Assembly: GCA_964421045.1 (NCBI GenBank)
Contig: CAYQVF010000009.1
Location: 4,380-68,379 of the forward strand
Origin: an uncultured Chromatiaceae bacterium
Lineage (GTDB): Bacteria > Pseudomonadota > Gammaproteobacteria > JAADHS01
DNA length: 64,000 nt
Reading direction: 5' to 3'
Below the pieces are notes generated by a model that saw only the letters and a list, made by a program, of their open reading frames with translations, searched no databases and had not been told where the DNA came from. Positions 1-22,829 of this stretch are shown here, one piece after another (positions within the stretch are counted from its first letter, which is position 1; each line of letters begins with the position of its first letter). The position numbers were made by a program, and so were the translations under genes.

Positions 1-2154
1 TTGTTCTACGGCGACGTCGGCAGCCCCCGGTACATTCCCGATGACCTTTTCCAGCTGGTGGCCCAGTGCAATAAGTTGATCAAAATCGTCGCCAAATATT
101 TTGACTGCAACTTCAGAGCGAACGCCTGAAATCAGTTCGTTAAAGCGCATTTGAATAGGCTGCAAAAACTCATAACGATTGCCCGGAATCGGTGTCACTA
201 AGGCTTCTAATTCAGCAATGAATTGAGTTTTTTCTTTGTTAGGGTCTGGCCATTCTTCCCGTGGTTTAAGAATAATAAAGTTATCCGCTACACTAGGTGG
301 CACTGCATCAGTTGCCACTTCAGCAGTACCGATTTTGGCAAACACTCTTTCGACTTCCGGTAGTTTTTTTATTTCTGATTCCAATATTTTTTGCAGATGG
401 ATGGCCTCGGTAAGAGAGGTGCCCGGAATGCGCAATGCGTGCATCGCAATATCTCCTTCATCAAGATTAGGCACGAATTCGGAGCCGAGCTTTGGAATTA
501 AAAAAGCAGAAAAAACAACCCAAGTAATCGCCAGAGCAACAACCAACCATCTCAGCTTCAGGGAGAGCAATAAAATAGGTTTGTAGAGTGAACGTGCCGC
601 CTGAACGGCTCTGTTTTTTTTCTCTTTTATGGGTTTTTTAAAGAGCAGTGCAACACCAGCCGGGATGAAGGTAATCGATAAAATCATCGCGCTGAGCAAA
701 GCAATGATCACTGTGATGGCCATGGGATGAAACATTTTCCCTTCTACGCCACTGAGCGCGAATATGGGAATATAAACCGCCGTAATAATGAACACCCCAA
801 AAAGTGCGGGACGAATCACCTCCCGAGTGGCCTCGAAGACAATGGCCAAACGTTCACTGAGTGAAAGTCCATCTTTATGATAGGCGTCACTCAACCGACG
901 CATGCAGTTTTCTACTATAATAACCGCGCCATCAATGATTAAACCAAAATCTAATGCGCCCAGGCTCATCAGATTGGCACTGGTTTTAGTTTGTACCATG
1001 CCCGTGATAGTCATTAACATGGCAATAGGAATAACCGCTGCAGTTAATATCGCGGCACGAATATTCCCTAAAAACAGAAAAAGAACAACGATGACCAACA
1101 ATGCGCCTTCCAAAAGATTCTTTTTAACCGTTGCCAGTGTTTTATCCACTAACGTGGTTCGGTTGTAAACTGCAGTGACAGTGATACCATCGGGCAAACT
1201 ACTTTTAATTTCTTCCAATTTGAGAGCAACATCATTAGCAACGGTACGGCTGTTTTCGCCAATTAACATAAAGACCGTGCTCATCACCACCTCTCGACCA
1301 TTTTGTGTGGCCGCACCCGAGCGTAATTCTTTACCCAAACTAACGCGAGCTACATCTTTGATGCGAATGGGAATGCCATGATGCTGACGAATAACAATAT
1401 TACCCAGGTCAGTGAGTGTGCTGGCTTGACCGGGGACACGCATCAACCACTGTGCACCGTTATGTTCTATGAAGCCCACGCCCCGGTTGTTGTTATTATT
1501 TTGGATGGCGTGTACCAGCTCTGAGTAGTCCATTTGGTAAGCCAGTAATTTGGCTGGCTCAGGTGCGACCAAAATTTCTTTTTTGAACCCCCCAATGGGA
1601 TTAATTTCAGCGACACCGGCAACGCGCATTAATTGTGGGCGAATAATCCAGTCATGCGCGGAGCGCAAATCCATGGGTGTAATCAAGCTACCATCACTAT
1701 TTTTGGCATTGAGTTCGGCATCGACGGTAAACATGAAAATTTCACCCAGCCCCGTTGCAATCGGACCCAGGGCAGGTTCTAACGAAAAGGGTAGATTGGC
1801 CTTGACGGTACTCAGACGTTCATGGACTAATTGTCGGGCAAAATAAATATCCGTACCTTCTTCAAATACCACCGTCACTTGCGATAAGCCATAGCGTGAA
1901 AGTGAGCGAGTATAGGATAGCTTGGGTAACCCCGCCATCGCCGTTTCTACGGGGAAACTCACCCGTTGCTCTGCTTCCAGTGGGGTATAACCGGGTGCGG
2001 CCGTATTAATGACAACCTGAACATTGGTAATATCCGGTACGGCGTCAATCGGCAATTGGGTAAATTTCCACACGCCCAAACCCATCACGATAAGGACGAG
2101 CGCCATCACTAATCCTCGGCGGGCAAGTGCAAATTTGATAATCGCTTCTAGCAT
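1..2154 (-). CDS. czcA: Heavy-metal efflux RND transporter (CzcA/CusA family), N-terminal ~718 codons. The gene continues past the window start.
   Basis: Manual minus-strand translation from the ATG at 2154 gives MLEAIIKFALARRGLVMALVLIVMGLGVWKFTQLPIDAVPDITNVQVVINTAAPGYTPLEAEQRVSFPVE...GREVVMSTVFMLIGENSRTV, a typical HME-RND N-terminus. The frame stays open to position 1, and the ORF track omits it because it lacks a stop inside the window. It lies directly downstream of the membrane-fusion-protein and outer-membrane-factor genes. Confidence 0.8.
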   Translation of the reverse strand, partial: MLEAIIKFALARRGLVMALVLIVMGLGVWKFTQLPIDAVPDITNVQVVINTAAPGYTPLEAEQRVSFPVETAMAGLPKLSYTRSLSRYGLSQVTVVFEEGTDIYFARQLVHERLSTVKANLPFSLEPALGPIATGLGEIFMFTVDAELNAKNSDGSLITPMDLRSAHDWIIRPQLMRVAGVAEINPIGGFKKEILVAPEPAKLLAYQMDYSELVHAIQNNNNNRGVGFIEHNGAQWLMRVPGQASTLTDLGNIVIRQHHGIPIRIKDVARVSLGKELRSGAATQNGREVVMSTVFMLIGENSRTVANDVALKLEEIKSSLPDGITVTAVYNRTTLVDKTLATVKKNLLEGALLVIVVLFLFLGNIRAAILTAAVIPIAMLMTITGMVQTKTSANLMSLGALDFGLIIDGAVIIVENCMRRLSDAYHKDGLSLSERLAIVFEATREVIRPALFGVFIITAVYIPIFALSGVEGKMFHPMAITVIIALLSAMILSITFIPAGVALLFKKPIKEKKNRAVQAARSLYKPILLLSLKLRWLVVALAITWVVFSAFLIPKLGSEFVPNLDEGDIAMHALRIPGTSLTEAIHLQKILESEIKKLPEVERVFAKIGTAEVATDAVPPSVADNFIILKPREEWPDPNKEKTQFIAELEALVTPIPGNRYEFLQPIQMRFNELISGVRSEVAVKIFGDDFDQLIALGHQLEKVIGNVPGAADVAVEQ

Positions 2155-2166
2155 AATGAGTGGCCT

Positions 2167-3420
2167 TTAATGATCGTGAGCGGCGCCGGATTTTTCAATG
2201 TCGGCTTTGATGACGTAGCTGTTTTCGCTGACATAACGGGTACCCGGTTCCAGGCCACCCAACACTTCAGCCCATTCACCTGTTTGCAGGCCAAGATCGA
2301 GCATACGAACCTCGTACTGCTCTCCTATTTGCGCATAAACTACCGTGAAATCCCTGAAAGCTTGTAGACCGGTTCGTTTCACCGCTAAAGCGGCGGCGTG
2401 TTCTCTCACGGTTATTGCGGCGCTAATATGACGTCCGGGGCGAAGTTGGCCTTTTTTGTTATTCAATACGACGCGCACCTTAACCGTTTGATCGGTTTCA
2501 GCCGTTATGTTGATTTGAGAGATTTTGCCGTTGGCCGATTGCTTGCTTGTTGTATCGGTAATGGTCACGGGGGCACCCATTTTTACTTGATGTAAATCAC
2601 TAGGGAAGATGAAAAGCTCCGCCCAAACAGAACGGGTATCCATAATTGTGAACAGTTGACGTCCATCCGTTTGTTCGCCGACGTTAGCATCACGTTGAAT
2701 AATGACGCCATTGATAGGCGCATTTACCGTAAACAGTTGCAAGCTTTCATTGCTTTCAACCGTCGCCAATTTTTGACCTTTGCGAACCTGTTCACCCAGT
2801 GCGGGTGAGACTGATTTAATCATGCCATCAAAGCGAGCGGTGATTTTTCGCAGACGCTCATTATTGGCTGCGATCTGACCGTATACCGTGATGGTTTCTT
2901 GCATCAGCACAGAACCTGCAACCGTGGTGCCGATTTCTAGAGCTTCGGCTACCGCAGCTTCAATTTCAGTCCTGCCCTCAAAACTATCGTATTGCCAGGT
3001 ATGTGTTAACCCATCGTGAGTTGCTTTGATCGCAACAGAGAATGAATGGGGTTCATAAATAACGGTATCACCGCGTAAAACGTCACCCTGAGGCTTGAAT
3101 TTGATGTTTTCTTGTTTACCACCCAGACGAGTCAAAGTAATATCAAGATCGATCGCTTCAGGTGCCAATGCTTTGTTATTTTTTGTTGCCCAGGCACGAA
3201 ACTCTGGCGGCACACCCGTCTCGAAAATAGCCAGTTCAAGGATGAAATCGCCATCTTTAAATAATCGCCCTCGATGCGGACCTTTTTCCGGTTCTGCCTC
3301 AATCGTTTCACCATGAGCCTCTTTTTCTGGCATTGTTTTTTCTAAATCTACGTTACCGCAAGCGGTGAGAAAAATCGCCCATAGAAATAGCAATATAGAA
3401 TTTTTCACCATTTTTTTCAT
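2167..3420 (-). CDS. czcB: Efflux RND periplasmic adaptor (membrane fusion protein, CzcB/CusB family), lipoprotein
   Basis: 417-aa protein with a signal peptide plus Cys (LTAC lipobox). The C-terminal region is typical of HlyD-like membrane fusion proteins. It overlaps the outer-membrane-factor gene by 4 nt and is 12 nt upstream of the RND pump gene. Confidence 0.75.
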   Translation of the reverse strand: MKKMVKNSILLFLWAIFLTACGNVDLEKTMPEKEAHGETIEAEPEKGPHRGRLFKDGDFILELAIFETGVPPEFRAWATKNNKALAPEAIDLDITLTRLGGKQENIKFKPQGDVLRGDTVIYEPHSFSVAIKATHDGLTHTWQYDSFEGRTEIEAAVAEALEIGTTVAGSVLMQETITVYGQIAANNERLRKITARFDGMIKSVSPALGEQVRKGQKLATVESNESLQLFTVNAPINGVIIQRDANVGEQTDGRQLFTIMDTRSVWAELFIFPSDLHQVKMGAPVTITDTTSKQSANGKISQINITAETDQTVKVRVVLNNKKGQLRPGRHISAAITVREHAAALAVKRTGLQAFRDFTVVYAQIGEQYEVRMLDLGLQTGEWAEVLGGLEPGTRYVSENSYVIKADIEKSGAAHDH

Positions 3421-4697
3421 AGCCGTTTTCCTGGTGCTGTTTGTTTTAAGTGAAGGGTTGGCTGTATCAAACGCACGCCCGTTAATCGTTCAATTTCAAT
3501 AATATTACGATGAGCATCAATACTGGCTTCAATGAGGGTATTGTGCGCATCCAGAACCTCATCCTGAACACTCCGCCACTCTAAATAACTGTAGCGTCCA
3601 AGCTGGTATGCGCGACGAGTTTGAGTGAGTGCTTGCTCAAGGGGAGGTATAATTTCGTTACGCACAGTTTCAATAACATACAAACTGCGTTGCAATTTTT
3701 CATAGATGACATAGAGCGCTGTTTCGATGCGAATCCGTGCCGCGTGCTCTTCACGGTTAGTTTGAGCCAGATTAGCACGCGCTTCCGCAATACGGCCTGG
3801 GTTAAGTGTGCGTTTGCCAAAGGGGATGCTAATGCCCGCGACAAGGGCTTGATCATGGTCTCTGTTATTATGACGAACCCCTGCATTCACACGCCAGCTT
3901 GGTTTTTTTTGAGCCAGTGCGAGCTGTAACTCGGCTTTTTTTAGAAGCTGGTCTGACAATAGTCTTTCGAATTCAGGGTTTTGTGCTAGCTGCAATTTAA
4001 GGGTTACAAAGGATGCCACCTGAATAGGACGAGTAATATCACCTTCAACTCGTGAAAAAGTAGGTATGGTCTCTCCCCATTGAGCCGCCAAACGACGATT
4101 CGCTGAAATTCTTTTATAGTCAATGTCTTTGCGTTCCAACTTTCTGCGAGTCCATTCAGCTTGAGCTCTGAGCCGTTCAGCATCCGGTGTTTTACCTGCT
4201 TTCACGCGTTTATCTACCACTTTAATGGTTTCTTTTGCGAGCTGAACGGTTTTATCCGCATTCACTTCACGAGCCTGGTAGGCCAAGCTGGCCAGATAAC
4301 GACGTGCGGTTTCAGCTGCGGCATCCAATTGCCTGATATCCGCTTCAACAGCAACCAAGGAAGAACCGGCGCGAGCTGCATCAATATGACGCTGTCGAAC
4401 TCCGCGTTCCAGCACCCAACTAATACTCAGTGTTGCTTGCGCACTGTCTACGCTTTTATTATTTCCCGTGCCTAACACATCTTCGAGTTCGAAATTTAAT
4501 TCAGGGCTGGGTGCCAACTCCGCTTGCAGCACGCGCCCTTGCTGTGCTTCAATTTGATAGTCAAAGGCTCGTAGTTCCGGGTTGTGTTCAATGGTTTTGG
4601 TCACGGCTTCATGCAAGCTCATCGTGCGTGCCTTCGCCTCTAAAGTTGGGGCTGCACTCACGGCTGAACTGAATAAAAGTAAAAAAAATAAGGCCAT
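3417..4697 (-). CDS. czcC: Outer-membrane efflux protein (TolC/CzcC family)
   Basis: The ORF extends to 4799, but the probable start is the Met at 4697 (MALFFLLLFSSAVSA signal peptide). Its length and coiled, repeat-rich sequence fit an outer membrane factor, and it is first in the C-B-A order. Confidence 0.7.
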   Translation of the reverse strand: MALFFLLLFSSAVSAAPTLEAKARTMSLHEAVTKTIEHNPELRAFDYQIEAQQGRVLQAELAPSPELNFELEDVLGTGNNKSVDSAQATLSISWVLERGVRQRHIDAARAGSSLVAVEADIRQLDAAAETARRYLASLAYQAREVNADKTVQLAKETIKVVDKRVKAGKTPDAERLRAQAEWTRRKLERKDIDYKRISANRRLAAQWGETIPTFSRVEGDITRPIQVASFVTLKLQLAQNPEFERLLSDQLLKKAELQLALAQKKPSWRVNAGVRHNNRDHDQALVAGISIPFGKRTLNPGRIAEARANLAQTNREEHAARIRIETALYVIYEKLQRSLYVIETVRNEIIPPLEQALTQTRRAYQLGRYSYLEWRSVQDEVLDAHNTLIEASIDAHRNIIEIERLTGVRLIQPTLHLKQTAPGKRL

Positions 4698-4886
4698 TCG
4701 TCTCTCCGTTTGTGCCGCTATAAAAAAACATCTCCACATTACACACTCCTTACATACGATTGCTATACCCCCCATAGTACTTATGGATTCAGGTGTCATG
4801 GGTATCGTTCAGGCACAACAAATTGATTTTAATAATTTATCCTGGAAAGCTTAGCGCTAGCTTAAGGTGAAAGTTTTCAGAAAAAT

Positions 4887-5626: not shown

Positions 5627-6727
5627 GTGATGGAAAGTACAACGGTAACAACACTGCCAGGCACAGGCAGCACAGCCGATCTACCCAAAGAACACGATAG
5701 CAATACAATACTGGCCAATAACGAATCCAGCATTGCCTCACTCGTATCTGAAATTCAAATGCAGGATTCAGAAAGCATTCTGCATTTCGGTTCAAAAACT
5801 CAGTATAAACTCACGGAAATCTCTGAGAACATGCTGGATGGTGTAAAAAATAAAGATCTTGGCTCTGCTGGGGGTGCATTAAATGAAGTTGTTTCCGTTC
5901 TCCGAGGATTTGATATCGATTCAATCAAAAAACCCTCTTTTTTTGAAAAAATATTGGGTAAAGCCAATCCTGTCGCAAAAATTTTACAGCGCTATGAATC
6001 GGTAAGAGGGCAAATTGATGCCATTACGAATCGTTTGGAAGGTCACAAAACGCAACTTTTAACCGATATTATTTCCCTGGATAAATTATACGAAGCCAAT
6101 CTGAATTATTTCCATGACCTTGAAACTTATATCGCTGCTGGTGAAATAAAACTAAAAAACCTGGATGAAAAAGAACTCCCTGAACTGGCAAAAAAAACAG
6201 AGCAATCAGACCAGGTTTTAGATGCACAAACACTCAGTGATCTACGCGCATCAAGAGATGAGCTTGAAAGGCGTGTACATGATTTACGACTCACTCGTCA
6301 GGTTGCTTTACAAGCCTTGCCAAGTATTCGTTTGGTGCAAGAGAATGACAAAGGACTCGTTAATAAAATTAACTCGACCATCGTAAATACGGTGCCATTG
6401 TGGCAAAACCAACTGGCTCAGGCACTGACTATTTCCCGTGCATCACAAGCAGGTAAAACATTACAAGCAGCCACAGACCTAACCAATGAATTATTGGAAT
6501 CCAATGCAAAAAATTTGAATACTTCAAATGCACAGATACGCAAGCAACTGGAACGTGGAACATTTGATATTGAATCCATTAAAAAGGCCAATACACTACT
6601 GATCACCACCATTGAAGAAAGCATTCAAATCTCTGAAGCCGGAAAAAAAGCAAGAGCTGAGGCAGTAACTGAGTTAATAGATGCTGAAAACAAACTAAAA
6701 ACCGCTTTAACAAAAGCTAAAGCTTAG
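5627..6727 (+). CDS. TelA/KlaA-like toxic-anion-resistance family protein (tentative)
   Basis: 366 aa, hydrophilic and coiled-coil rich, with a low-complexity N-terminus. The length and the YIAAGEIKLKNL-type segment are reminiscent of the TelA family. It is divergent from the metal-efflux cluster. Confidence 0.4.
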   Translation: MMESTTVTTLPGTGSTADLPKEHDSNTILANNESSIASLVSEIQMQDSESILHFGSKTQYKLTEISENMLDGVKNKDLGSAGGALNEVVSVLRGFDIDSIKKPSFFEKILGKANPVAKILQRYESVRGQIDAITNRLEGHKTQLLTDIISLDKLYEANLNYFHDLETYIAAGEIKLKNLDEKELPELAKKTEQSDQVLDAQTLSDLRASRDELERRVHDLRLTRQVALQALPSIRLVQENDKGLVNKINSTIVNTVPLWQNQLAQALTISRASQAGKTLQAATDLTNELLESNAKNLNTSNAQIRKQLERGTFDIESIKKANTLLITTIEESIQISEAGKKARAEAVTELIDAENKLKTALTKAKA

Positions 6728-6822
6728 ATGTACGGATTACGCCGTGCAGTCTGGGCAAAAAAAGTCGGTTGTCGTGTAGCCAAATCGGTTTTTAACAGGA
6801 AGCTCAAAAAAGCAATACTGAG

Positions 6823-6900
6823 GTGTAGTAGCTCAAATCTAAACTAACAGACACCCTAAAAAAACGGGTAACTGTCAGATTAGGTCTGAGCTACTACATC
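6823..6900. terminator. Imperfect ~20-bp inverted repeat (GTGTAGTAGCTCAAATCTAA ... TTAGGTCTGAGCTACTACATC) between convergent genes
   Basis: Seen directly in the sequence. The arms are 6823-6842 and 6880-6900 with a ~37-nt spacer and 2-3 mismatches. It sits between the 3' ends of the TelA-like (+) gene and the LVIVD (-) gene. No U-run follows, so it may not be an intrinsic terminator. Confidence 0.3.
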
Positions 6901-7111
6901 TAATTGTTTGATTAATTCTTCAACTGTAATTTTCGACATTATATATCCTTTATTTGATGCAACGTAACAACTGCGATTAAAAACATAGTCGAGTAGAGCC
7001 AGGCGTGCGCAATCTTAGGTGAAGAGTTTTTCCGACCTGTACTTTTTGCGGTTGTGCAGCGGGTTCCTAGTTTCACCCTCATCCACTTTTCCTATGCCCT
7101 CTCTAATATAC

Positions 7112-10105
7112 TTAGTCCCTGTCGCCACACAAACTTTGGTTATCACAATGTATGCGGGCGTTAGAAAAAGACATTTTCATTTTAATGGCATTGGGGTATG
7201 GGTAGGCTATTCCCGCAGCGTTTATATTAAGATCATAACTGCCCAGAGGCATAAACCGGGGGAAAATAGCTTTAAACAGATTTTTATTCACCTGATCAGG
7301 AATGAAGTTCACTTCGGGTAATGGCTTCAATGCAGTAATCATCGTATTTCCGGCGAGATAAACTGCGTCAACTCCAGGCCAAAACCGGGTCAGTTGACCG
7401 ATTAATGGGTACTCAACCTTCAGCTTTAATTCAGGAGCAGAATATTCTAACAACGAGCCTGACGCAGCGAGAGCATATAGTTCCCCCTCAGCCAGGCTCA
7501 AATCGGTAATGGACTCATTTAACTTGATTTTATTCAGCAATGTTAAACCTGTACTCGTTAAGCGATATAATCTTAAATACTTATCGTTTTGATAGGCTAC
7601 GAGTTGATTTGAGCGAACACTAATCAAGTTTGCGGCAACAGGAAGGTCGTATTTTTTTACTAGTTTCAAATCGGAGTCAAACACCATCAATCCCGCTTCA
7701 GCCTGCTGTAAGGCAACGTATAACTTATCTGAATACCCAGCAATATCGTTAACTATGCCACCAGACCACAGGACTTGACTCATCTTTTTCCCGCTCACAT
7801 CAACACGAAGAAGCGCTTGCTCAGCTGTGATGATAAAAATGGCGTACTCACTAAGTATTATTTTTTTTGGATTAACACGCAATTCAATATGTCGCAATGC
7901 ATGAGCCTGGAAAGGATTGCTGATGTCTATTTCAGTCAATAAACCCGCATCAGAAATGACATAAGCTCGTGTCTCATTAATGGCAATCCCGACGCTGTTT
8001 CCAGGTAAATCAACACCGGTCACCCAGGTTGGGTTGAGCGGGTTTTTATTATCAAATACTTGCACCCCCCCTTCTCCATTTGCACTATAAAGATAATGAC
8101 CTTGCTCAACGACTTGCTCAACCACGCCACGCTCATGATAGCGATCTTTCAATGTCAATTTTCGGGGATTGCTAACATCAATCGTAACGACCCCACCCCA
8201 CCAGTCCATAACAAAAAGATGACCCTTATTATAAGCCAAGCCCCAGGCGGCACCGCTGGTATCATAACTGCCCAACAAACGCAGTGTGTTCACATCACTG
8301 ATATCAACAACATGAACACCGGCCAACCAATCTGCGATATAGGCATAATTCTCATGCAGATCAATGCCCCGTGCATTACCTGGCGTAGCCAGCATCGCCA
8401 AAAGTTCAGGCCTAACCGCATCTGCCACGTCAATAGCCATCAGCCCCTGGTCAAAAAAAGTAACGTAGGCAATATTATCTCTAACCCGTACATCTTCCGC
8501 TCGACCTTCAGGGTTAAACTGCCCCAGCAAACCGGGATGGCTGGGTTCGGTCACATCATAGATCAACAATCCCGCTGCATCATCCGCGATATAAGCTTTA
8601 TGATCCACGACATCGATCCCCCATGACATCCCTGGTGTATCAATATGAGCGATGATACTGGGTTGCAGTGGATTGCTGATATCGAGTATTTGGAAACCGC
8701 CCTGATGACTGGCCAGATAAAGATGATCTCCCACAATTTTGGGAATATAAGCCAAACCCGGTGTTAATATATGCGCTGCGTATTTTGGCTGCTGCACGTT
8801 GTGTACATCCACAATATGCAAGCCGTGATCATCATCGGCAATATAGGCATAACCGGCTTTGACAACCACGCCTTTTGGCGAACCCGGCGTATGATAACTG
8901 GAGATCAGTTTAATCCGTGCGGGATCACTGATGTCATAAATATGCATGCCTGAAAACCAATCCGCAACATAAGCAATATCATCTTCAATAAAAAGACGGC
9001 GCTCACCACCAAAGTTCACCCCTTGACCTGAGTCTAAACGTTGATTAGTCAACTGCGGAGGCGTAGCAGAAAAGTCTATTTTTTTTACACCACCTTGCTG
9101 AGCAATAATAATATCGTTATTATGCATGGCCAGCTCATAAATTGAACCTTTTGCATCATATACCGAGATGGTGGTTGGCATCATAGGTAAAGCAACATCA
9201 ACAACAATCACCTCCCCTTCCAGGTTGTAAAGCACCAGACGATCTTGAGCGAGATCTAATTGTAACTGGCGCACCGCTCCCAAGCGGCTATGGCTACCTA
9301 ACCAGCTCAGTTGTCCATCGGCCTGCAAACCAAGAATAAGGACACCACCCGCCCCTAAGGCAACATAGACATAAGTTCCGCCCATTTTAATATCGTAAAC
9401 AGGTAAAGAAACATGATAAGACCCCTGGTATTTTGCACCCTGCGCACTGAGCAAGTAGTACCTGATTTCTCCAGACTCAGTCACAACAAGGAGTGTATTG
9501 TCATTCACTGTAATCATATCAGCAGACTGTTCCGTCACGATGACATGGGGCTTGATCTGTTCTGTTACTGTCGTATCAAAGCGAACCACTTCTGCATGGT
9601 CCGTGGTGACATATAATTTTCCACCCTCAATAATCGCATGCTGAATCCTGGCACGACCTTGATACTGTGCCCGTAAAGCTAACTGCCCACCATCGAGTAC
9701 ATCATAGGCGGTAATATCGCCATTCGTCGTGATGACAAATAAGACATCATGACTCATCCCGACCCATTGGTATTTAGCTTGTGCTAATGTCGCTCTCTTT
9801 TTTCCTGAGTCTAAATCTCGAACCTCGAGTTCACCCTGCTCTGTAATAACAAAAACATAGTCATCAGAGACAGTCAAAAACTGCGCCTGATAAGGCAATG
9901 CAAATTTACCTACCAGCCTAGCACCACCCGGATGAAGCGTGATATTGTCCACGTTTTTTTTAACTTCTACAGCCACTGTAGTCTGTTTACCATATGAAAT
10001 AACAGCCGGATCCAGTTGCTTCAGCAACCCCGAATCAGCATTCAGGCTGCTCGCCCCTAAAAATAAACAAAGACTCCCTGAAATGATTTTAAGTTTATCT
10101 ATCAT
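7112..10105 (-). CDS. Large secreted LVIVD-repeat (beta-propeller) protein
   Basis: 997 aa with a signal peptide ([23 protein letters not shown]). It has at least 8 tandem repeats of the LVIVD type (YAYIADDDHGLHIVDVHN, AYIADDAAGLLIYDVTEP, AYIADWLAGVHVVDISDVN, LFVMDWWGGVVTIDVSNP, AYVADWFSGMHIYDISDP, LYLASHQGGFQILDISNP ...). Its start overlaps the stop of the upstream histidine kinase gene. Confidence 0.7.
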   Translation of the reverse strand: MIDKLKIISGSLCLFLGASSLNADSGLLKQLDPAVISYGKQTTVAVEVKKNVDNITLHPGGARLVGKFALPYQAQFLTVSDDYVFVITEQGELEVRDLDSGKKRATLAQAKYQWVGMSHDVLFVITTNGDITAYDVLDGGQLALRAQYQGRARIQHAIIEGGKLYVTTDHAEVVRFDTTVTEQIKPHVIVTEQSADMITVNDNTLLVVTESGEIRYYLLSAQGAKYQGSYHVSLPVYDIKMGGTYVYVALGAGGVLILGLQADGQLSWLGSHSRLGAVRQLQLDLAQDRLVLYNLEGEVIVVDVALPMMPTTISVYDAKGSIYELAMHNNDIIIAQQGGVKKIDFSATPPQLTNQRLDSGQGVNFGGERRLFIEDDIAYVADWFSGMHIYDISDPARIKLISSYHTPGSPKGVVVKAGYAYIADDDHGLHIVDVHNVQQPKYAAHILTPGLAYIPKIVGDHLYLASHQGGFQILDISNPLQPSIIAHIDTPGMSWGIDVVDHKAYIADDAAGLLIYDVTEPSHPGLLGQFNPEGRAEDVRVRDNIAYVTFFDQGLMAIDVADAVRPELLAMLATPGNARGIDLHENYAYIADWLAGVHVVDISDVNTLRLLGSYDTSGAAWGLAYNKGHLFVMDWWGGVVTIDVSNPRKLTLKDRYHERGVVEQVVEQGHYLYSANGEGGVQVFDNKNPLNPTWVTGVDLPGNSVGIAINETRAYVISDAGLLTEIDISNPFQAHALRHIELRVNPKKIILSEYAIFIITAEQALLRVDVSGKKMSQVLWSGGIVNDIAGYSDKLYVALQQAEAGLMVFDSDLKLVKKYDLPVAANLISVRSNQLVAYQNDKYLRLYRLTSTGLTLLNKIKLNESITDLSLAEGELYALAASGSLLEYSAPELKLKVEYPLIGQLTRFWPGVDAVYLAGNTMITALKPLPEVNFIPDQVNKNLFKAIFPRFMPLGSYDLNINAAGIAYPYPNAIKMKMSFSNARIHCDNQSLCGDRD

Positions 10106-12513
10106 TATATTTTTTCGGTAAGCAATAACTCTGCAGCCCCAGTCAAGCCATCCATGACGGTATAAAATTCATTATTGAAAGAGTCGAGTAACTCTGCGTA
10201 GGGAAGCCCTTCGAATAATGTTGCTTCCAGTGCTTCTATTTTTTTTGATAATTGAGTGGCACCCAAGCTAGCGGCAACACCACGCAGTGTATGCAGGAGA
10301 TGACGCACCTGTTTATCCTCTCCCAGGTTTAATGCCTTTGCCAACACGTTGGCATCATCACCATGATCCCTCACAAACTCTCTCAGCAGTTTACAAAACA
10401 ACTTGCGGTTTCCTCCGACTCGCTGCAAGCTTTCATTGATATCTATACCCGGCAGAGCGTTAAGAAAACGATCAGCTACATCAATATCTTGTTCATCATT
10501 ATTTTCCCAAGAATGCAGTTCATTGGACGATAAAGCCATCCATTTAGTCAACGTGGCATATAAAATATCAGGATCAATCGGCTTGGTAATATGATCGTCC
10601 ATTCCAGCCGCTAAAAATTTTTCTCTGTCACCGGACATGGCATGAGCGGTCATAGCAATAATAGGCAGTGTTTTACAATACACATTTTTACGGATGAGAC
10701 GGGTCGCCTGATACCCATCCATCTCCGGCATCTGTATATCCATCAGCACTAAATCAAATGTTTTTGCACGCACAGCCTGAACAGCGAACACGCCATTATT
10801 GGCAATTGTTACCCGTACACCCGTCACTTCAAGGAGCTCTTGAGCCACTTGTTGATTAATGCTGCTGTCCTCCACGACCAGTACGCGAACGCCTCTCAAG
10901 TCAGGCACTCCCCCCTTTTTCAATAATAAATCTTGTTTTTCGACGCCTTTATGAAGAGAGTGAGAACATTCAAATTCAGCATTAAAAAAGAAAGTGCTAC
11001 CCCGACCAGGCTGGCTTTTAACACCCAATGCCCCATTCATCATAATCACCAGTTGTTTGCTAATCGCCAGGCCCAAACCCGTGCCGCCATAATTTCTTGT
11101 CGTCGAACCATCGGCTTGAATAAAAGGTGCAAACAAAGCATCGGCCTTGTCAGGCTCAATGCCTATCCCGGTATCTTTTACCGAAAAATGTAACACGACC
11201 CGTTCTTCTTCTGTCTCCTGTATTTTTACAGATACATGAATATAGCCTTGTTCAGTAAACTTCAGCGCATTGCCAACAAGATTAATTAATACTTGTCCCA
11301 AGCGCAGCGAGTCTCCCACCAGGACCGCAGGAATTTTTTTGTCAATGTCATAATTCATGACTATCCCTTTTTCTGCCGCGTCTACCGACACCAAATTAGA
11401 AAGATGATCGAATACACCTTGCAAGGAAAAATCAGTTTTTTCTATTTCCAGGTGACCCGCTTCTATTTTTGAAAAATCAAGAATGTCATTAATAATACCC
11501 AGCAATGTCTTGGAGGAAGTCTGAATTTTATTTAAATAATCACTCTGCTTCGGCGTCATTTCAGTTTTAGTCGCGAGATAAGCCAAACCCATAATGGCAT
11601 TCATTGGGGTACGAATTTCATGGCTCATATTGGCGAGAAACTCACTTTTGTAACGGCTTGCCTGCTCGGCCTGTTCTTTGGCCTCCACCAGTTCCAATGT
11701 CCTTTCAGAAACCGTGTCTTCCAGTTTATCATGGGCTTGTTGAAGCGCGGTTTCAGCACTTTTTCTCGCTTCTTGCTGATGCTGGATGCGCACCAACATA
11801 TGATTAAATGCTTCGTACAAACGACCAATTTCATCTTGCGCAGGGTGGTGCACCCGCCGACTGTAATCCATATTTTGAGAGATATCATCAGCAACGCCAG
11901 CCAGCGTTAAAATCGGTTTTGAAATCACGCTCTGCAGGGCATTGGCTAACAAATAGGCCAGGGCGATTAAGAACAAAGCCGTAAACAATAGAAAAAGTCC
12001 ATATTGCCGTCGTTTATCATCGAGCTCTTTAGTGGAGAGTAATAAATAAATGCTGCCGTAGTCACGCTCCTGATAGCGAATGGGTTTAATAACATGTAAT
12101 TTGTTATCACGAAATTCGGTAAGATCATTTGTTTCAGAATGAATCATCCGGTTTGCGGCTTGTTTAACTAGTAAATCCACTGAGCTTTGGGATTTTGGAA
12201 CCGCGACATTATGCAAACGAGTGAATAATTTCCCTTTTTTGTCATACAAAAAAGCCTCTTCCACTGCCGGTGTACGCAGCAATCCAGAAAGCGTTTCCCG
12301 CGCGGCTTCTTCATCGCCAAAAAAAAGATCGGAAGCGGCATACCCCCCCACAGTATGGGCTGTAATCACCGCATTATCCAACATATTTTGCTTAAAAGCC
12401 TTCACATCCGTAAACATGACAAAACCCAAGCCCAAACTGACGACGGGAATAACCACGGCAAGAATGACAATAATGATTCTGTGGCGCAAAGACAGTTGGG
12501 CCAAAGACTTCAT
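10105..12513 (-). CDS. Hybrid sensor histidine kinase/response regulator (TM-periplasmic-TM, HAMP, HisKA, HATPase, REC, Hpt; BarA/GacS-type architecture)
   Basis: H-box [13 protein letters not shown], an HATPase region ([22 protein letters not shown]), a REC domain ([10 protein letters not shown]...[15 protein letters not shown]...TAHAMSGD) and a C-terminal Hpt ([12 protein letters not shown]). The N-terminus has two TM segments flanking a periplasmic domain of about 150 aa. Confidence 0.85.
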
Positions 12514-13046
12514 TTTTTTTCGCGACCTGTTGAAGACATCATGATCGCCAATTTAAGTAATCTTGAACTGATTTTTAAACCCACCGTTTCCGCTGCCTGC
12601 TGATTGATTTCAAAATGGAGTTTATTATTTTTACGAATAAAATTAATCATCACACCTTGATGAGCAAAGCCAGGGGTATCACTAATGGTTAATACCGGAC
12701 GATTTTGTAATGAGACAAGAATGCCCTCTAGAGCCTTGTGTTGTGTTTTTTCGATAAACAACATATCGCAATCGACAGCAGATTCAGAGCGACTCATTTG
12801 GGTAAATAATGTCGGTCTACCGTTAATGGCCAAAGATTCCAGTTTTTTCAGTTCACCTTTAAATAAATTTTTTCCAATAATGCATAATTGAAAATGCCCT
12901 TTTGAACCGCCCGGCCATTCAACAAAACGAGTGAATTTTTCCATAAACGCCGCTTTTAGTTCATACTCACTCACGCCCCCCCATGCAGGCAATGAAAAAC
13001 TTAATAGCAGCAATATCGTCAGTACACGCTTCAACAGCATTTCCAT
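12510..13046 (-). CDS. YfiR-like periplasmic protein (DUF4154)
   Basis: 178 aa with a signal peptide. The C-terminal [42 protein letters not shown] is characteristic of DUF4154/YfiR. It overlaps the kinase start by 4 nt and is 1 nt from the TBDR stop. Confidence 0.65.
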
Positions 13047-13047
13047 A

Positions 13048-15198
13048 CTAAAATTTATAATGCAATGTGAAACTCAGCAATCTTCCTGGCTGAGGTGCTT
13101 CGAGAAAAGTGACTTGAGTTGTACCTTCTGAAACATTGACATATTTTTTATCAAATAGATTGAAAATATCTGCTTTAATAGTAAAACGATCCGTGAGTTT
13201 GACCTGACTGTGTAAATCTATCCGGTAATAAGAAGGAATACGCAAACGTTTGGTGCTGTCATTGGGGGTTTTTTGTTTGTGTTGAGTCGAACCCACCCAA
13301 AATAATTTCGGTGTTAGCAAATATTTATTGTGATAGTCCAGGGTCATGCCAGCAATAAACTTGTATTTAGCAGTTAAAGGTAATTCAGAATCCCCCTCCC
13401 CCTCTTTTAACTGACCTTCAATAAAGCTGACATTCGCCCAGCTTTTCAACGTTGTTTTGTTCGCTAAAATAGATTCATTTGCAACACTCACGTCAATGCC
13501 ATAGCTTGTTGAATCTGCCATATTTTTCGATTTTTGTGTCCGCAATATCTGAGCACCCGGAATCGCTTGATCCGGTGTCTCATCCGCAGCGGTCTGTATG
13601 ATGTCAGAGACTGAAATATAATAAGAAGCCACTTTTAAATGTGTATGCTCATCAAACCAATGCTCATAATTCAATTCAAAAGTTTTTGCTTTTTCAGGCT
13701 TGAGATCCGGATTAGGTACCTGGAAGAAATCGCCTATCCACGCCCCATTACTATTTTTTTCGCCGCTAAAACCACCAAAGTGGCGAAACATTTGATCCGA
13801 TGACGGCGCGACAAAAGCATGGCCATACAATATTTTAAATACATTGCTTTCATCGTATTTATAAATGGCGCTGATACGCGGATTACGAGTTTTACCATAC
13901 AATGAATTATTATCATAACGTAGCCCGATGACCAACCGCCATTGCGAGTTAATCTCCCAATTATCTTGTAGATAAACGCCATAATTACGATAGCTTCTGG
14001 CAAAAAAAGCGATGGGGATATCGGTATTTGGATAGGTCAAAGTTTGTTCATCAGGGCTTTTTGACGTGTCGTAGCGTGCAGGTAGATCAGCGCCTACCGG
14101 TATGACGTCAAAATAATCAAAAACCAGACCTCCTGACAAATGATGATTTTGATTAAACTTGAATTCAAAATCCTGATTCAATGACACACGGTCACTGTTT
14201 CCATATTTGTAACCCGGTTTAAAGTCTGTGAATCTATTGTTGTAATAAGTATTATTTTTCAACTCATAGTTCATTGCATTAAGCAAAGTGTTTACTTTAA
14301 ACCCGGAAAACAATTCTGTTTGATAGCGCACATAAAAATTGCTCAGCCGTACTCTTTCTTGTGCATCGACATCAAACGCACTGCTTGACGGTAGCGAAGA
14401 AAAATCGTGACTATACGAGTAAGCGCTATGATTAAATCCAACTTGCCAATTTTGACCGAGACTGATGTTGCCCAGCAAACTGTAGTTTCTTGAATTAGCA
14501 AAGCGATAGCCTTTAGACGGATCGTCGTATAGCTCAGGGAAATCTTTATCAAATTCAAAATTTTGTGATTTATAAGCCTGCACACCCAGGTTAAGGTGTA
14601 CATTATCCTTTATATTATGACTGAGATGAGCGTATCCATATCGATAGTCATCTTGACCGGCGGTGACTGAAATATCAGCGACATTACGCTCGTCACTGTC
14701 CATAGTAATAATATTAATCACACCCATGAAAGCATCAGCACCATAAGAAACGGAAGCCGGCCCCATAAGTACTTCTATTTGTTTGGCGTAGTAAATAGGG
14801 AAATTTTCAAAAATAGCTAGTCTTTCACTTGCCGGTGCACTGATACGTACACCATCCTGCAAAAAAAGAAACTTGTTATTACCCACGACACCTCTTGTCG
14901 TAATCAGATTATAAGAAGCTTGCGCCGAAAAATTTTGCATTTGAACACCGGGCAAACTTTGCAGAATATCCAGCAAGCTGGTATAGCCACGCTCTCTAAT
15001 CTGCTTTTGAGTAAAAACATGAATATCTGCTGGTGTATCCCGTAGCTTTTCTTCGTATTTAGATGTCGTACTGATTTCAATATTCATCAGCTCTTGTAAC
15101 GACAGTTGACGAAGACCTTCAGAAATATCGGCTGACAGTGGGCAAGGAATAATACAGATGGCAACTACAATTAGTTTTCGTCTGAAATAGCCATCCAT
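13048..15198 (-). CDS. TonB-dependent outer-membrane receptor
   Basis: 716 aa with an N-terminal plug region (DTPADIHVF...GVQMQ, MGPASVSYGADAFMGVINIIT). The protein is beta-rich throughout and has a C-terminal aromatic (…LHYKF) typical of TBDR barrels. Confidence 0.8.
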   Translation of the reverse strand: MDGYFRRKLIVVAICIIPCPLSADISEGLRQLSLQELMNIEISTTSKYEEKLRDTPADIHVFTQKQIRERGYTSLLDILQSLPGVQMQNFSAQASYNLITTRGVVGNNKFLFLQDGVRISAPASERLAIFENFPIYYAKQIEVLMGPASVSYGADAFMGVINIITMDSDERNVADISVTAGQDDYRYGYAHLSHNIKDNVHLNLGVQAYKSQNFEFDKDFPELYDDPSKGYRFANSRNYSLLGNISLGQNWQVGFNHSAYSYSHDFSSLPSSSAFDVDAQERVRLSNFYVRYQTELFSGFKVNTLLNAMNYELKNNTYYNNRFTDFKPGYKYGNSDRVSLNQDFEFKFNQNHHLSGGLVFDYFDVIPVGADLPARYDTSKSPDEQTLTYPNTDIPIAFFARSYRNYGVYLQDNWEINSQWRLVIGLRYDNNSLYGKTRNPRISAIYKYDESNVFKILYGHAFVAPSSDQMFRHFGGFSGEKNSNGAWIGDFFQVPNPDLKPEKAKTFELNYEHWFDEHTHLKVASYYISVSDIIQTAADETPDQAIPGAQILRTQKSKNMADSTSYGIDVSVANESILANKTTLKSWANVSFIEGQLKEGEGDSELPLTAKYKFIAGMTLDYHNKYLLTPKLFWVGSTQHKQKTPNDSTKRLRIPSYYRIDLHSQVKLTDRFTIKADIFNLFDKKYVNVSEGTTQVTFLEAPQPGRLLSFTLHYKF

Positions 15199-15304
15199 AA
15201 TCTAGCATCCAGTCTTAAGTATTGGCGAGCGTCCTTTGTACTCTATGTCTCCATCTTTCGTCAATGAAAACATTATGTTTTTTACGATGTGATGTGCTAA
15301 GAAT

Positions 15305-15454
15305 CTGTAAATAAATAACTTGGCATTCTACGCTCGCTAGCACTTCGTCTCCACAGCTCACGCCCCTTAGCGACTTCCATAAAAGCAAGGTGCTTATACT
15401 CGTTACCAGAGACGGAATGATGGACAAGTAAAATATTAAGTTATTTATTTACAG
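15305..15454. repeat. Perfect 17-bp inverted repeat (CTGTAAATAAATAACTT / AAGTTATTTATTTACAG) with a 116-bp spacer in an AT-rich divergent intergenic region
   Basis: Seen directly: the arms are 15305-15321 and 15438-15454. It sits in the 600-bp region between the TBDR operon start and the gshA start. A second 8-bp inverted repeat (GTGCATAG-N21-CTATGCAC) occurs near 15545-15581. Confidence 0.5.
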
Positions 15455-15805
15455 GCTCTAACCCAAAGTGGCGTCAAAAAACCTCACTTAGTGCCACAAA
15501 AAATGCAAATCTATATAACCCTAAAAAACGCAGTTGATCCACGGTGCATAGCTCAATCTTGCAGTTAAGGAACTATGCACATTCCTAATTCAACATTAAT
15601 ATAATGACTATTTTTAAATAGAGACTAGAATACTCAGGCTTACTCATCGTACAATATACCCATGACGATTGAGATTTAGGTATAATTACACGTCCTCTTC
15701 ATTACCATCGGGGCGTTAAAATTTCTCGCAATAGTAAACTACATCTAAACCTCAAACGCCACGGGTATAGACCCTCAACATTATATATTTAGGAATTCAA
15801 AACTA

Positions 15806-22200: not shown

Positions 22201-22829
22201 GGTGTAACGGTTCCTTCATTCATATCTCGTTGAATTATACTCGTTTCTATCGACTTAAGCAGTGTCAACTGGCGCTTGATTTTTTCTCTTTCCGCTTCGC
22301 TTTCAGACAGTTTATCTTTTAATTTCTGGTTTTTCTTTTCCAGTTCACTGTACTTGGAATCCAGAGAATACATCTCTTGGCTCAGTCGCATATTTTCTTG
22401 TAACCAACGACGATACTGTTTTCCCAAGAAAGCCAGAAAGTGCTCTGATTGGCTACGCTCCGACGAGTCATCTTTTAAATTTCCGTCTCTTATTAGAGAC
22501 AGAACTTGCTCTGCTGACTTTGTACTTTTATCGCTATAAGCCTGTAATAAAATCAACTTATATCGATTTAACATGCTCGGCTGATTCGTAAAATCAGCCT
22601 TTACTTCAACCAATAACTGCGCTAACTGTTTATCGCTAAGCCCTTCATATATCTTGGTAAATTGACTTATTTCTTGTAGCTCATAATAGGCAGAATATTG
22701 GGTCTGAAACAAAACCTGGCGTCCTGTGTTGCCTACTCCCGATGTTCGTTCAAACGCAATACAACCCGTTAACAAGAACATCAAACCAACCAGAACCAGC
22801 CTTGCTAAAGTATATCTAGCATAATTCAT
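22197..22829 (-). CDS. Coiled-coil lipoprotein (QseG/YfhG-like position between kinase and regulator)
   Basis: 210 aa. It has a lipobox (LTGC) after a signal peptide and a C-terminal coiled-coil (KYSELEKKNQKLKDKLSESEAEREKIKRQL). It overlaps both neighbouring genes by 4 nt. Confidence 0.5.
   Translation of the reverse strand: MNYARYTLARLVLVGLMFLLTGCIAFERTSGVGNTGRQVLFQTQYSAYYELQEISQFTKIYEGLSDKQLAQLLVEVKADFTNQPSMLNRYKLILLQAYSDKSTKSAEQVLSLIRDGNLKDDSSERSQSEHFLAFLGKQYRRWLQENMRLSQEMYSLDSKYSELEKKNQKLKDKLSESEAEREKIKRQLTLLKSIETSIIQRDMNEGTVTP

Follow-up and report, generated by a model that had tools for sequence, protein, structure and literature searches.

The DNA analysed here, referred to as the window, is a 64,000-nucleotide stretch from an uncultured Chromatiaceae bacterium. 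Its minus strand carries an uninterrupted 997-aa open reading frame with an ATG start (Table 1), at exactly the positions given in an earlier, sequence-only reading of this DNA. That reading also assigned the product to the LVIVD-repeat proteins, and the corresponding Pfam model (PF08309) agrees, matching seven stretches with a score of 186.8 bits, where the cutoff is 20.2 (E 3.2e-56). The encoded product is an LVIVD-repeat β-propeller protein, another member of the existing LVIVD superfamily. Among public contigs, 4-5 carry a called protein of identical sequence (P0001).

Three genes precede this one on the same strand, encoding a TonB-dependent receptor, a YfiR-like periplasmic protein and a CHASE8-type hybrid sensor kinase. 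Adjacent genes in this apparent unit overlap by 1-4 bases or are separated by a 1-base gap, and at the last junction the TAA stop codon of the kinase and the ATG of the LVIVD gene share one base (TAATG). The kinase scores 144 bits against the NCBIfam model ‘HK near YfiR-like’ (cutoff 194) and the YfiR-like protein scores 115 bits against NF053591 (cutoff 125). The three-gene order of receptor, DUF4154 protein and CHASE8 kinase recurs in unrelated contigs, and the four-gene order is identical in an 89%-identical relative (L005). A scan of positions 6600-15900 returned 22 promoter-like sites (23.8±4.8 in shuffled sequence) and 12 terminator-like sites (7.4±2.8 in shuffled sequence), with no convincing site of either kind.

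Table 1. Features of the LVIVD gene, its product and the genes upstream (residue numbers refer to the LVIVD protein)
Feature	Position in window	Strand	Basis and remarks
LVIVD-repeat gene, 997 aa	7112..10105	-	ATG 10105-10103, stop codon 7114-7112; ORF list and translation
Predicted Sec signal peptide, residues 1-23	10037..10105	-	Read from sequence
Four short β-strands before first propeller, residues 28-59	9929..10024	-	DSSP of AF2 model, pLDDT ~93
N-terminal degenerate propeller, 7 four-stranded units, residues 63-344	9074..9919	-	28 strands in AF2 model
Gly-rich loop, residues 347-369	8999..9067	-	Near-invariant, family-specific; consensus N-E-x-L-D-x-G-Q-G-V-N-F-G-G-E-R-R
Central 7-bladed LVIVD propeller, conserved core, residues 370-663	8117..8998	-	Repeat HMM
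C-terminal propeller, 6 four-stranded units, residues 664-903	7397..8116	-	24 strands in AF2 model
Small C-terminal all-β module, 6 strands, residues 904-981	7163..7396	-	DSSP, pLDDT ~89-94
Clade-specific tail ARIHCDNQSLCGDRD, residues 982-997	7115..7162	-	C-terminal block of family alignment; pLDDT <50
Hybrid sensor kinase, CHASE8-HAMP-HisKA-HATPase-REC-Hpt	10105..12513	-	Pfam; upstream of LVIVD gene
YfiR-like periplasmic protein (DUF4154)	12510..13046	-	PF13689 E 1e-42; overlaps kinase start by 4 bases
TonB-dependent receptor, first of apparent four-gene unit	13048..15198	-	Plug and TonB_dep_Rec_b-barrel domains

A purpose-built repeat HMM resolved seven in-register 42-aa units between residues 370 and 663, each with an E-value of 1e-22 to 1e-25, followed by weaker units at 664-705 (E 2e-4) and 706-741 (E 5e-6). 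The sequence-only reading had described at least eight clean repeats in the C-terminal two-thirds of the protein; the seven clean and two weak units instead all fall within the middle third, with the last quarter of the protein degenerate to the same extent as the first third. These are true repeats rather than an artefact of low sequence complexity, and the AF2 model of the protein is confident (pLDDT 89.5). It contains four-stranded antiparallel blades arranged in closed rings and superposes on solved seven-bladed propellers at ~2 Å. The expectation of more than one propeller was therefore sound, but in place of two propellers, or one propeller and a novel domain, three are predicted, with ~20 blades most likely arranged as 7+7+6.

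The degenerate flanks are also LVIVD-derived, as judged by core LVIVD profile matches. In the N-terminal propeller these matches are weak (i-E 2.8e-7 and 4.9e-13) and are accompanied by matches to PQQ_2/BamB-type models that lie below cutoffs. Relatives of ~915 aa lack two or three N-terminal blades through deletions in the range of residues ~100-196. In the C-terminal propeller a core-profile match covers residues 700-836 (i-E 8.7e-8); its first two units are recognisably LVIVD, the unit at 664-705 is well conserved, and the remainder is degenerate. Unit 664-705 probably belongs to this propeller rather than to the central one.

The protein was proposed earlier to be secreted, and both its N-terminus and those of its relatives are consistent with this. 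Residues 1-23 have the layout of a Sec signal peptide, with a basic n-region, a hydrophobic core and an L-N-A|D cleavage site that would leave a mature start of DSG; the AF2 model places a helix at residues 6-17 of this region with a pLDDT of <50. A hydrophobic N-terminal stretch is present in 100 of 114 relatives. Inspection of the sequence and Pfam searches detected no lipobox, sorting signal, outer-membrane domain or known anchor domain in the LVIVD protein. The short strands at residues 28-59, for which Pfam gives no match, could on the model form a small β module or a closing blade. The all-β module at residues 904-981 had no Pfam match even at an E-value of 10, and the two pieces, searched singly or joined at the same threshold, gave no match that would make them a split Ig-like (IPT/TIG-type) domain.

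Beyond this module, most of the family shares a conserved tail, MPxFSKPKITxEEFxxLL. This tail is absent from the window protein and from two other proteins (P0002 and P0003), which end in ARIHCDNQSLCGD(RD); its loss is, as far as the aligned sequences go, a clade-specific departure. Comparison of the 3′ ends shows that only the coding part is common to the window, L005 and a further relative (L085). Insertion of a mobile element at the 3′ end of the gene was considered and rejected: the 306-nt stretch in question is repeated neither in the window nor at the other loci. A 19-codon mini-ORF (MSKITVEELIKQLDVVAQT) at 6938-6880 on the minus strand, ~170 nt downstream, was also considered as the lost family tail (FSKPKITxEEFxxLL) and was rejected as a chance likeness; it falls outside the top 10 matches of a tail HMM to the six-frame translation of the window.

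The species-level genomes with full-length relatives of ~900-1100 aa number at least 144, and every one is a metagenome-assembled genome (MAG) of an uncultured organism. The 120 relatives listed all match with E <1e-160 over 93-100% of the query and are 850-1130 aa long. The window protein belongs to this unnamed family of ~1000-aa triple-propeller LVIVD proteins, with full-length collinear similarity that includes the termini without LVIVD likeness, and in the representative library family members are each matched once, over their full length. The description of the protein as unusually large does not hold up, since ~95 of the best 150 representative matches are family members, themselves full-length proteins of ~1000 aa. 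A further ~50 of these 150 are LVIVD proteins of 1,300-7,218 aa with 3-13 propeller-sized matches. At 997 aa the protein has the usual length for its family and is short compared with other LVIVD proteins. Carriers include Chromatiaceae, Gallionella, Nitrosomonadales and others, which are uncultured and mostly sulfur- or iron-oxidising Gamma- and Betaproteobacteria. The proteins are annotated as hypothetical in every source, and we know of no demonstrated function for any LVIVD repeat protein or for any member of the ~1000-aa family.

Conservation within the family is focused on the centre of the protein. The majority-residue frequency is 0.61-0.79 in residues 347-703, compared with 0.32-0.52 in the flanks. 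Counting a position as invariant only if it is at least 95% conserved among the 120 relatives and the window residue is the majority residue, we found 84 such positions. Of these, 39 are generic to LVIVD proteins. Another 36 are family-specific: in a set of 67 LVIVD propellers taken from unrelated giant proteins, fewer than 20% retain them. The family-specific residues are rich in W, F, H, D, R, K and E and lie mostly in loops. In the Gly-rich loop, conservation reaches at least 95% among the 120 relatives at eight positions, which fewer than 20% of the giant-protein LVIVD propellers retain. Invariant residues specific to individual blades of the central propeller are W383, F384, H388, Y390, K411, D425, D426, H467, W495, E537, F551, R579, W593, W621, W635 and W636. 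The window protein carries the family-specific residues of both the loop and the propeller, and the four other family members compared retain 82-84 of the 84 positions. At other strongly conserved positions the window protein departs from the family by S353T, E355Q and R468Q. Gln in place of the near-invariant Arg468 is found in this protein alone, and its pocket may therefore differ slightly.

The focus of conservation on the central propeller suggests a single specific binding or catalytic pocket. We tentatively favour the explanation, to which we give a little less than an even chance as a whole, that the gene encodes an exported triple-propeller protein with a specific central pocket, made together with the kinase module. 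The protein would be exported by the Sec route and remain soluble, either in the periplasm or released to the cell surface. Its three tandem LVIVD-type propellers, most likely 7+7+6, would stand between two small β segments, and the central seven-bladed propeller would be the working part. The aromatic and charged residues, invariant in the family, are proposed to differ from one central blade to the next and to come from the strand-B/C and strand-D/A loops, which by the usual geometry of propellers should lie on one face. On this standard blade geometry, the invariant residues would cluster with the preceding Gly-rich loop in one specific pocket, which might bind a defined small ligand or glycan and might also act on it chemically. 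The degenerate, fast-evolving flanking propellers may serve as spacers or secondary contact surfaces. The LVIVD gene would be the last cistron, translationally coupled, behind the receptor/YfiR-like/CHASE8 hybrid kinase module, so that the protein is probably made together with that module. Our best guess is thus that the protein resides in the periplasm or at the surface and binds a ligand in a pocket that is possibly catalytic. In keeping with the earlier statement that no catalytic motif is evident, no known catalytic family matches the protein, and enzyme-like matches lie far below curated cutoffs. We regard it as distinctly unlikely that the invariant ring of Trp, Phe, His, Asp, Arg and Lys residues and the Gly-rich loop serve an undescribed periplasmic enzyme or receptor as its active or recognition site. 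If they do, the role of the protein might, for example, concern an extracellular or envelope substrate on which the lifestyle of its carriers depends, the family being confined on this reading to uncultured sulfur- and iron-oxidising lithoautotrophs that include the electrode-oxidising Candidatus Tenderia, and the triple LVIVD propeller would represent a new functional class and not one more repeat protein.

A different role is that of a protein-protein scaffold or adhesin, with broad propeller surfaces that would retain proteins of the periplasm or the extracellular space or anchor the cell on a solid substrate. The sequence-only reading suggested a surface adhesin or ligand trap, and a scaffold or adhesin role has been proposed for the LVIVD orthogroup of Candidatus Tenderia (bioRxiv 10.1101/2022.05.06.490989). 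The latter proposal is based on domains only, and we judge the role rather unlikely for the window protein. Rapid evolution and a variable number of repeats are usual in adhesins, whereas the 84 central positions are at least 95% conserved in a family that spans Beta- and Gammaproteobacteria, and other LVIVD propellers lack 36 of them. The invariant residues of the loop and the proposed pocket in the central propeller, together with the poorly conserved flanks, argue for a specific ligand or partner, or for catalysis, more than for generic adhesion. None of the anchors sought was detected, and the adjacency to c-di-GMP genes may be due to chance because such genes are very common. The reading of the frame as a decaying, non-functional gene or a low-complexity repeat artefact is effectively refuted. 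The C-terminal tail does depart from the family consensus, and several repeat prolines as well as Arg468 are substituted in the window clade or protein. However, the frame is intact over 997 codons, mismatches to the majority residue are few at positions that are at least 90% conserved, and several assemblies carry identical copies; all 84 invariant core positions are kept, by construction of the count. The repeats, moreover, are complex 42-aa units in a confidently modelled structure.

The protein could also be a dedicated periplasmic component of the adjacent kinase system, for example a ligand-capturing co-sensor or a regulated output. The overlap of its start codon with the kinase stop codon, the tight same-strand spacing of the four genes and the order retained in L005 all favour this, as does the analogy to YfiBNR, in which CHASE8-type sensors are controlled by periplasmic proteins (PMC4655355, PMC4887326). 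Nevertheless, among ~93 loci of the LVIVD family this context is seen only in the window's own copies and in L005; it is absent from the relatives with 68-69% identity (L085 and L093). Conversely, behind the three closest YfiR-like cassettes (52-56% identity) stand response regulators and never an LVIVD gene, and the conserved components of the YfiBNR-like or TOL_0243-0244 cassette do not include the LVIVD protein. With the context confined to the window lineage and cassettes elsewhere lacking an LVIVD gene, the partnership is recent and defines neither system, and we consider a dedicated role very improbable. A literature search for DUF4154 together with TonB-dependent receptors found nothing. 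The wider family offers no functionally telling gene neighbour. The commonest is a Tas-like aldo-keto reductase, which at 30 of 66 loci lies no more than two genes upstream. It is cytoplasmic and part of a thiD-thiE-hemL block, and we therefore read its adjacency as synteny; a 200-aa lipoprotein without a family match stands immediately upstream in 17 of the 66. Both are absent from the window.

The family merits attention as a sharply conserved exported three-propeller family, with many carriers from sulfur-, iron- or electrode-oxidising lineages. Its 36 family-specific invariant residues provide a concrete testable site, for example in Candidatus Tenderia biocathode communities, and the local link to a YfiR/CHASE8 kinase operon marks one lineage in which LVIVD regulation could be studied.

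Among known structures, the best whole-chain Foldseek matches are DDB1 and Trm734 (PDB 3e0c and 6jp6), each with three propellers in ~1000-1100 residues. This is a likeness of architecture only (TM-scores 0.2-0.28, identity ~10%, no evidence of homology): both are eukaryotic cytosolic or nuclear WD40-like proteins, and the propeller topology of DDB1 differs from that of the window protein. Seven-bladed Lp49 (3bws), the M. mazei S-layer YVTN propeller (1l0q), YncE (3vgz), the lactonase PpgL (6igb) and hydrazine synthase β (5c2v) share 10-16% identity with it and, judged by sequence searches, lack the family-specific residues. Since such bacterial and archaeal surface or periplasmic propellers have diverse functions, the fold alone assigns none. 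A search of PDB sequences with the family profile gave only weak generic propeller matches (Cake designs, BamB, and Sb-PTE over 72 residues). The protein also scores below the cutoffs for choice-of-anchor B (TIGR04312; 33.1 bits, cutoff 100), BamB/YfgL (TIGR03300; 22.2 bits, cutoff 285.2), PQQ_2 (PF13360; 27.2 bits, cutoff 27.6, N-terminal region only) and the contractile-injection-system protein CIS12 (NF053768; 35 bits, cutoff 860).

The neighbouring receptor, DUF4154 protein and CHASE8 kinase resemble YfiBNR-type sensing systems (YfiR with a CHASE8 sensor; TOL_0243/TOL_0244), but all three score below the TOL-family NCBIfam cutoffs, and the LVIVD protein is no recognised part of such a cassette. 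LVIVD repeat proteins were described as exported or surface proteins with a tandem 42-aa repeat predicted to form propeller blades (Adindla et al. 2004, PMC2447325). The window protein has the same repeat, far above the Pfam cutoff, but the fixed ~1000-aa three-propeller layout and the invariant loop and pocket set are features of its own family, and other LVIVD propellers lack that residue set. In the Tenderiales, a conserved LVIVD protein adjoins a conserved secreted protein of unknown function (bioRxiv 10.1101/2022.05.06.490989), and this orthogroup (ALP54212.1, Candidatus Tenderia electrophaga) is probably the same family as the window protein. A cluster look-up for a link between ALP54212.1 and the Tenderia family proteins returned no accession. 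Two Tenderia MAGs (L038 and L049) encode family proteins of ~913 aa with 37-38% identity to the window protein, and proteins of this type lack two of its N-terminal blades. Whereas the same preprint restricts the orthogroup to the Tenderiales, the family of the window protein extends to Chromatiaceae, Gallionella, Nitrosomonadales and others.

The LVIVD gene is a single unbroken open reading frame (ORF list and translation) at exactly the position that the sequence-only reading had assigned to it; it lies on the minus strand, and the plus-strand frame across the same interval contains many stops. Two short antisense ORFs on the plus strand are taken to be spurious (see the table). The protein begins with MIDKLK, a hydrophobic core and LNA/DSG, a predicted Sec signal peptide of typical form that lacks a lipobox. 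This feature is consistent with the secretion proposed earlier, and an N-terminal hydrophobic stretch is also present in 100 of 114 relatives.

Features of the LVIVD gene, its protein and the surrounding window
Feature	Window position	Strand	Residues or size
LVIVD gene	7112-10105	minus	997 codons
Antisense ORFs	7019-7321; 8060-8626	plus	
Hybrid kinase, CHASE8-HAMP-HisKA-HATPase-REC-Hpt	10105-12513	minus	
YfiR-like DUF4154 protein	12510-13046	minus	
TonB-dependent receptor	13048-15198	minus	
C-terminal tail of the LVIVD protein	7115-7162	minus	
Mini-ORF	6880-6938	minus	19 codons
Codon of residue 468	8702-8704	minus	
OEP outer-membrane factor, HlyD/CusB-type adaptor, TelA-family protein	2167-4799; 5627-6727	minus; plus	
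ORF between histidine kinase and sigma-54 response regulator	22197-22829	minus	210 aa
ORF	37652-38497	minus	281 aa
Family-specific, loop before central propeller			N354, G360, G362, V363, N364, G366, G367, R369, R370
Family-specific, directly after strand B of successive blades			W383, F384, H388, Y390, D425, D426, H467, F551, W593, W635, W636, G637
Family-specific, in or near inter-blade loops			K411, L451, P455, L462, W495, E537, N577, R579, A619, W621
Family-specific, unit 664-705			N688, L690, P692, W694, T696

Pfam LVIVD (PF08309) matches the protein in seven stretches (E 3.2e-56). A small HMM made from the protein's own repeats places seven in-register 42-aa units at residues 370-663 (E 1e-22 to 1e-25 each) and weaker units at 664-705 and 706-741, with only faint echoes elsewhere. 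Because of this Pfam match and the register of the HMM units, the repeats are judged genuine and complex rather than artefacts of low-complexity sequence. Clean repeats had been correctly recognized, but they number seven instead of at least eight, and they occupy the middle third of the protein rather than its C-terminal two-thirds.

AlphaFold2, run on a 32-sequence alignment, returned a confident all-beta model (mean pLDDT 89.5, pTM 0.87) that bears out the beta-propeller fold. Approximately 80 strands over residues 63-900 form 20 four-stranded units, preceded by four short strands (28-59) and followed by a six-stranded module (904-981). The top Foldseek matches in the PDB are the triple-propeller proteins DDB1 and Trm734, whose low TM-scores (0.2-0.28) mark them as analogues that share only the three-propeller architecture. 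Moreover, the conserved-core profile also matches both degenerate flanks (59-179, i-E 2.8e-7; 187-346, i-E 4.9e-13; 700-836, i-E 8.7e-8), and in one relative, P0043, the flank matches are as strong as 3.9e-37 and 2.2e-22. Together, the 20-unit model, the Foldseek matches and the flank matches argue for a predicted series of three tandem LVIVD-derived propellers, in place of the two propellers, or one plus a novel domain, suggested previously. The most likely layout in the model is seven blades (63-344), seven (370-663) and six (664-903). We infer from the model both the placement of unit 664-705 in the C-terminal propeller and the roles of the terminal pieces 28-59 and 904-981, neither of which matches a Pfam family.

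Although described earlier as unusually large, the protein is of normal size for its family and small compared with LVIVD proteins overall. A search of 5.8 billion clustered proteins listed at least 120 relatives of 850-1130 aa, each with E below 1e-160 and almost all unnamed or ‘hypothetical’; apart from the window's own copies, the nearest is NOY73012.1 (89% identity), from a Gammaproteobacteria MAG. Searched exhaustively with a profile, 1.84 billion representatives gave 59,233 matches at E <=1e-3, of which 18,967 have E <=1e-30. Of the 150 top-ranking among the 59,233, about 95 are single full-length matches of about 1000 aa, whereas about 50 are longer proteins (1,300-7,218 aa) that LVIVD matches in 3-13 propeller-sized stretches. 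The largest proteins (4,285-7,218 aa; P0241, P0242, P0255, P0275, P0335 and others), each with 8-12 separate propeller-sized core-profile matches, form a class of very large multi-propeller proteins that awaits exploration. In short family members (about 915 aa, minimum 852), the N-terminal propeller is missing two to three and a half blades. A one-genome-per-species scan found relatives in at least 144 genomes, from which 80 loci, all metagenome-assembled, were retained; most are labelled Gammaproteobacteria only, and the rest belong to Chromatiaceae, Ectothiorhodospiraceae, Thiohalomonadales, Gallionella, Nitrosomonadales, Candidatus Tenderia and a few others.

Conservation is concentrated in the central propeller. 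Over residues 347-703, the majority residue has a frequency of 0.61-0.79 among 120 members; values are lower in the N-terminal blades (0.32-0.52) and in the last five blades (0.34-0.49). Residues 347-705 include 84 positions conserved in at least 95% of members, which we compared with 67 LVIVD propellers of unrelated giant proteins. Thirty-nine positions are generic (kept by at least half of these propellers) and correspond to the repeat scaffold (Y-V-A-D, G-L, D-I-S, P, T-P-G), whereas 36 are family-specific (kept by fewer than 20%) and fall into four groups (see the table). In propellers, the B-C and D-A loops share one face. This geometry, coupled with the residue pattern, suggests that the family-specific residues form one specific predicted pocket lined with a ring of aromatic and charged side chains. 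The four other family members compared retain 82-84 of the 84 positions. Residue 468, which in the B-C loop of blade 3 comes directly after the invariant His467, is Gln in the window protein, the only Gln among 120 members (Arg in 113, His in six), and several repeat prolines have been lost in the protein's clade.

Almost every family member carries a conserved, charged C-terminal tail, MPxFSKPKITxEEFxxLLxxQ (family alignment A1). In the window protein this is replaced by ARIHCDNQSLCGD; the tail ARIHCDNQSLCGD(RD), with its two cysteines, is common to the protein and its relatives at 69-89% identity. The mini-ORF between the LVIVD gene and telA encodes MSKITVEELIKQLDVVAQT and is preceded, 8 nt upstream, by an AAGGA motif; its likeness to the family tail failed an HMM test. 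Downstream of the LVIVD gene, the window differs from L005, the locus of the 89%-identical relative. There, an ORF beginning MRDYKSLSHTRWDCK (~13165-13213) starts just past the LVIVD stop, at the contig end, and resembles the start of an IS200/IS605-type transposase.

The LVIVD gene closes a run of four genes on one strand whose ends overlap or abut, and its ATG has one A in common with the TAA stop of the kinase gene. The receptor, YfiR-like and CHASE8 kinase genes constitute a tight recurrent sensing cassette that is modelled in NCBIfam. In composition it resembles the TOL_0244/TOL_0243/‘HK near YfiR-like’ set, but all three scores are below cutoff (108 versus 645, 115 versus 125 and 144 versus 194 bits). 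By analogy with YfiBNR, it may be a divergent subtype with a TonB receptor in the place of YfiB. The closest YfiR-like relatives have the same gene order followed by response regulators, with no LVIVD gene. Among about 93 family loci, the cassette context occurs only in the window's own copies and in L005, and is absent from relatives at 68-69% identity. The link is thus a recent, lineage-specific event, and it probably gives co-expression. In a scan of 6600-15900, promoter-like (22 versus 23.8±4.8) and terminator-like (12 versus 7.4±2.8) sites were about as frequent as in shuffled sequence, and none was convincing.

The remaining window is ordinary chromosomal content by Pfam and NCBIfam. The telA gene is convergent with, and just downstream of, the LVIVD gene, and the OEP factor and adaptor resemble the IhpA/IhpB divalent-metal exporter at sub-cutoff NCBIfam scores (159 versus 650 and 200 versus 450 bits). 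Also present are gshA-gshB, a SelO-family gene, an HK/sigma-54 regulator pair, Pfam-inferred equivalents of ppiD, lon, clpX, clpP and tig, and aroC, cysG, serS and ftsK. The 210-aa and 281-aa ORFs have no Pfam match at E 1e-5.

Elsewhere, the LVIVD gene usually lies behind thiD-thiE-hemL and a gene for a Tas-like aldo-keto reductase (491 bits on PRK10625). In 30 of 66 loci, this reductase gene is no further than two genes upstream; we read the adjacency as synteny. Two-component or c-di-GMP signalling genes are located no more than four genes downstream in 22 of 58 loci (an ABC-type binding protein, kinase and RR-GGDEF-EAL, or HDOD plus GGDEF), which gives at most a weak hint at function. Directly upstream, in the same orientation, 17 of 66 loci encode a lipoprotein of about 200 aa without a Pfam or NCBIfam match (lipoprotein loci: L030, L048, L051, L055, L062, L064-L067, L069-L072, L074, L075, L078, L079, L081, L083), often with an HDOD protein and a DUF484/GAF-GGDEF cyclase downstream. 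This lipoprotein, which the window lacks, may be a partner of the family. The gene that follows the LVIVD gene at six loci (L004, L011, L016, L018, L036, L049) encodes a helix-rich secreted protein (about 290 aa) without a family match; next come genes for an ABC-type periplasmic binding protein, a histidine kinase and an RR-PAS-GGDEF-EAL protein. The 290-aa protein may correspond to ALP54213.1, described as a secreted neighbour of the LVIVD gene in Tenderiales (bioRxiv 10.1101/2022.05.06.490989).

What this protein does is best approached from its architecture. The signal peptide, the three propellers, the fast-evolving flanks and the almost frozen family-specific central loops point, tentatively and with somewhat less than an even chance, to a periplasmic or surface protein that would recognize one defined ligand in the predicted central pocket, and perhaps also act on it. 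No catalytic motif was evident in the sequence-only reading; in Pfam, NCBIfam and a PDB sequence search, no enzyme family matches above its own cutoff. The main rival is a scaffold or adhesin, a role raised in that reading and also proposed for the Tenderiales LVIVD orthogroup (bioRxiv 10.1101/2022.05.06.490989); given the family-specific loops of the central propeller, we regard it as rather unlikely. A dedicated role in the neighbouring receptor, YfiR-like and CHASE8 kinase module is improbable as a general function, since the LVIVD gene accompanies that cassette only in the window's lineage. A dead gene or repeat artefact is effectively excluded by the intact frame and the in-register units.

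Public annotation describes members of this family as hypothetical or as ‘LVIVD repeat-containing protein’, and the Tenderiales orthogroup noted in 2022 (bioRxiv 10.1101/2022.05.06.490989) probably falls within it. The predicted three-propeller layout and family-specific pocket are useful descriptive additions rather than a new category, and the window protein is a bona fide member of the LVIVD-repeat beta-propeller proteins (Adindla et al., 2004; PMC2447325).
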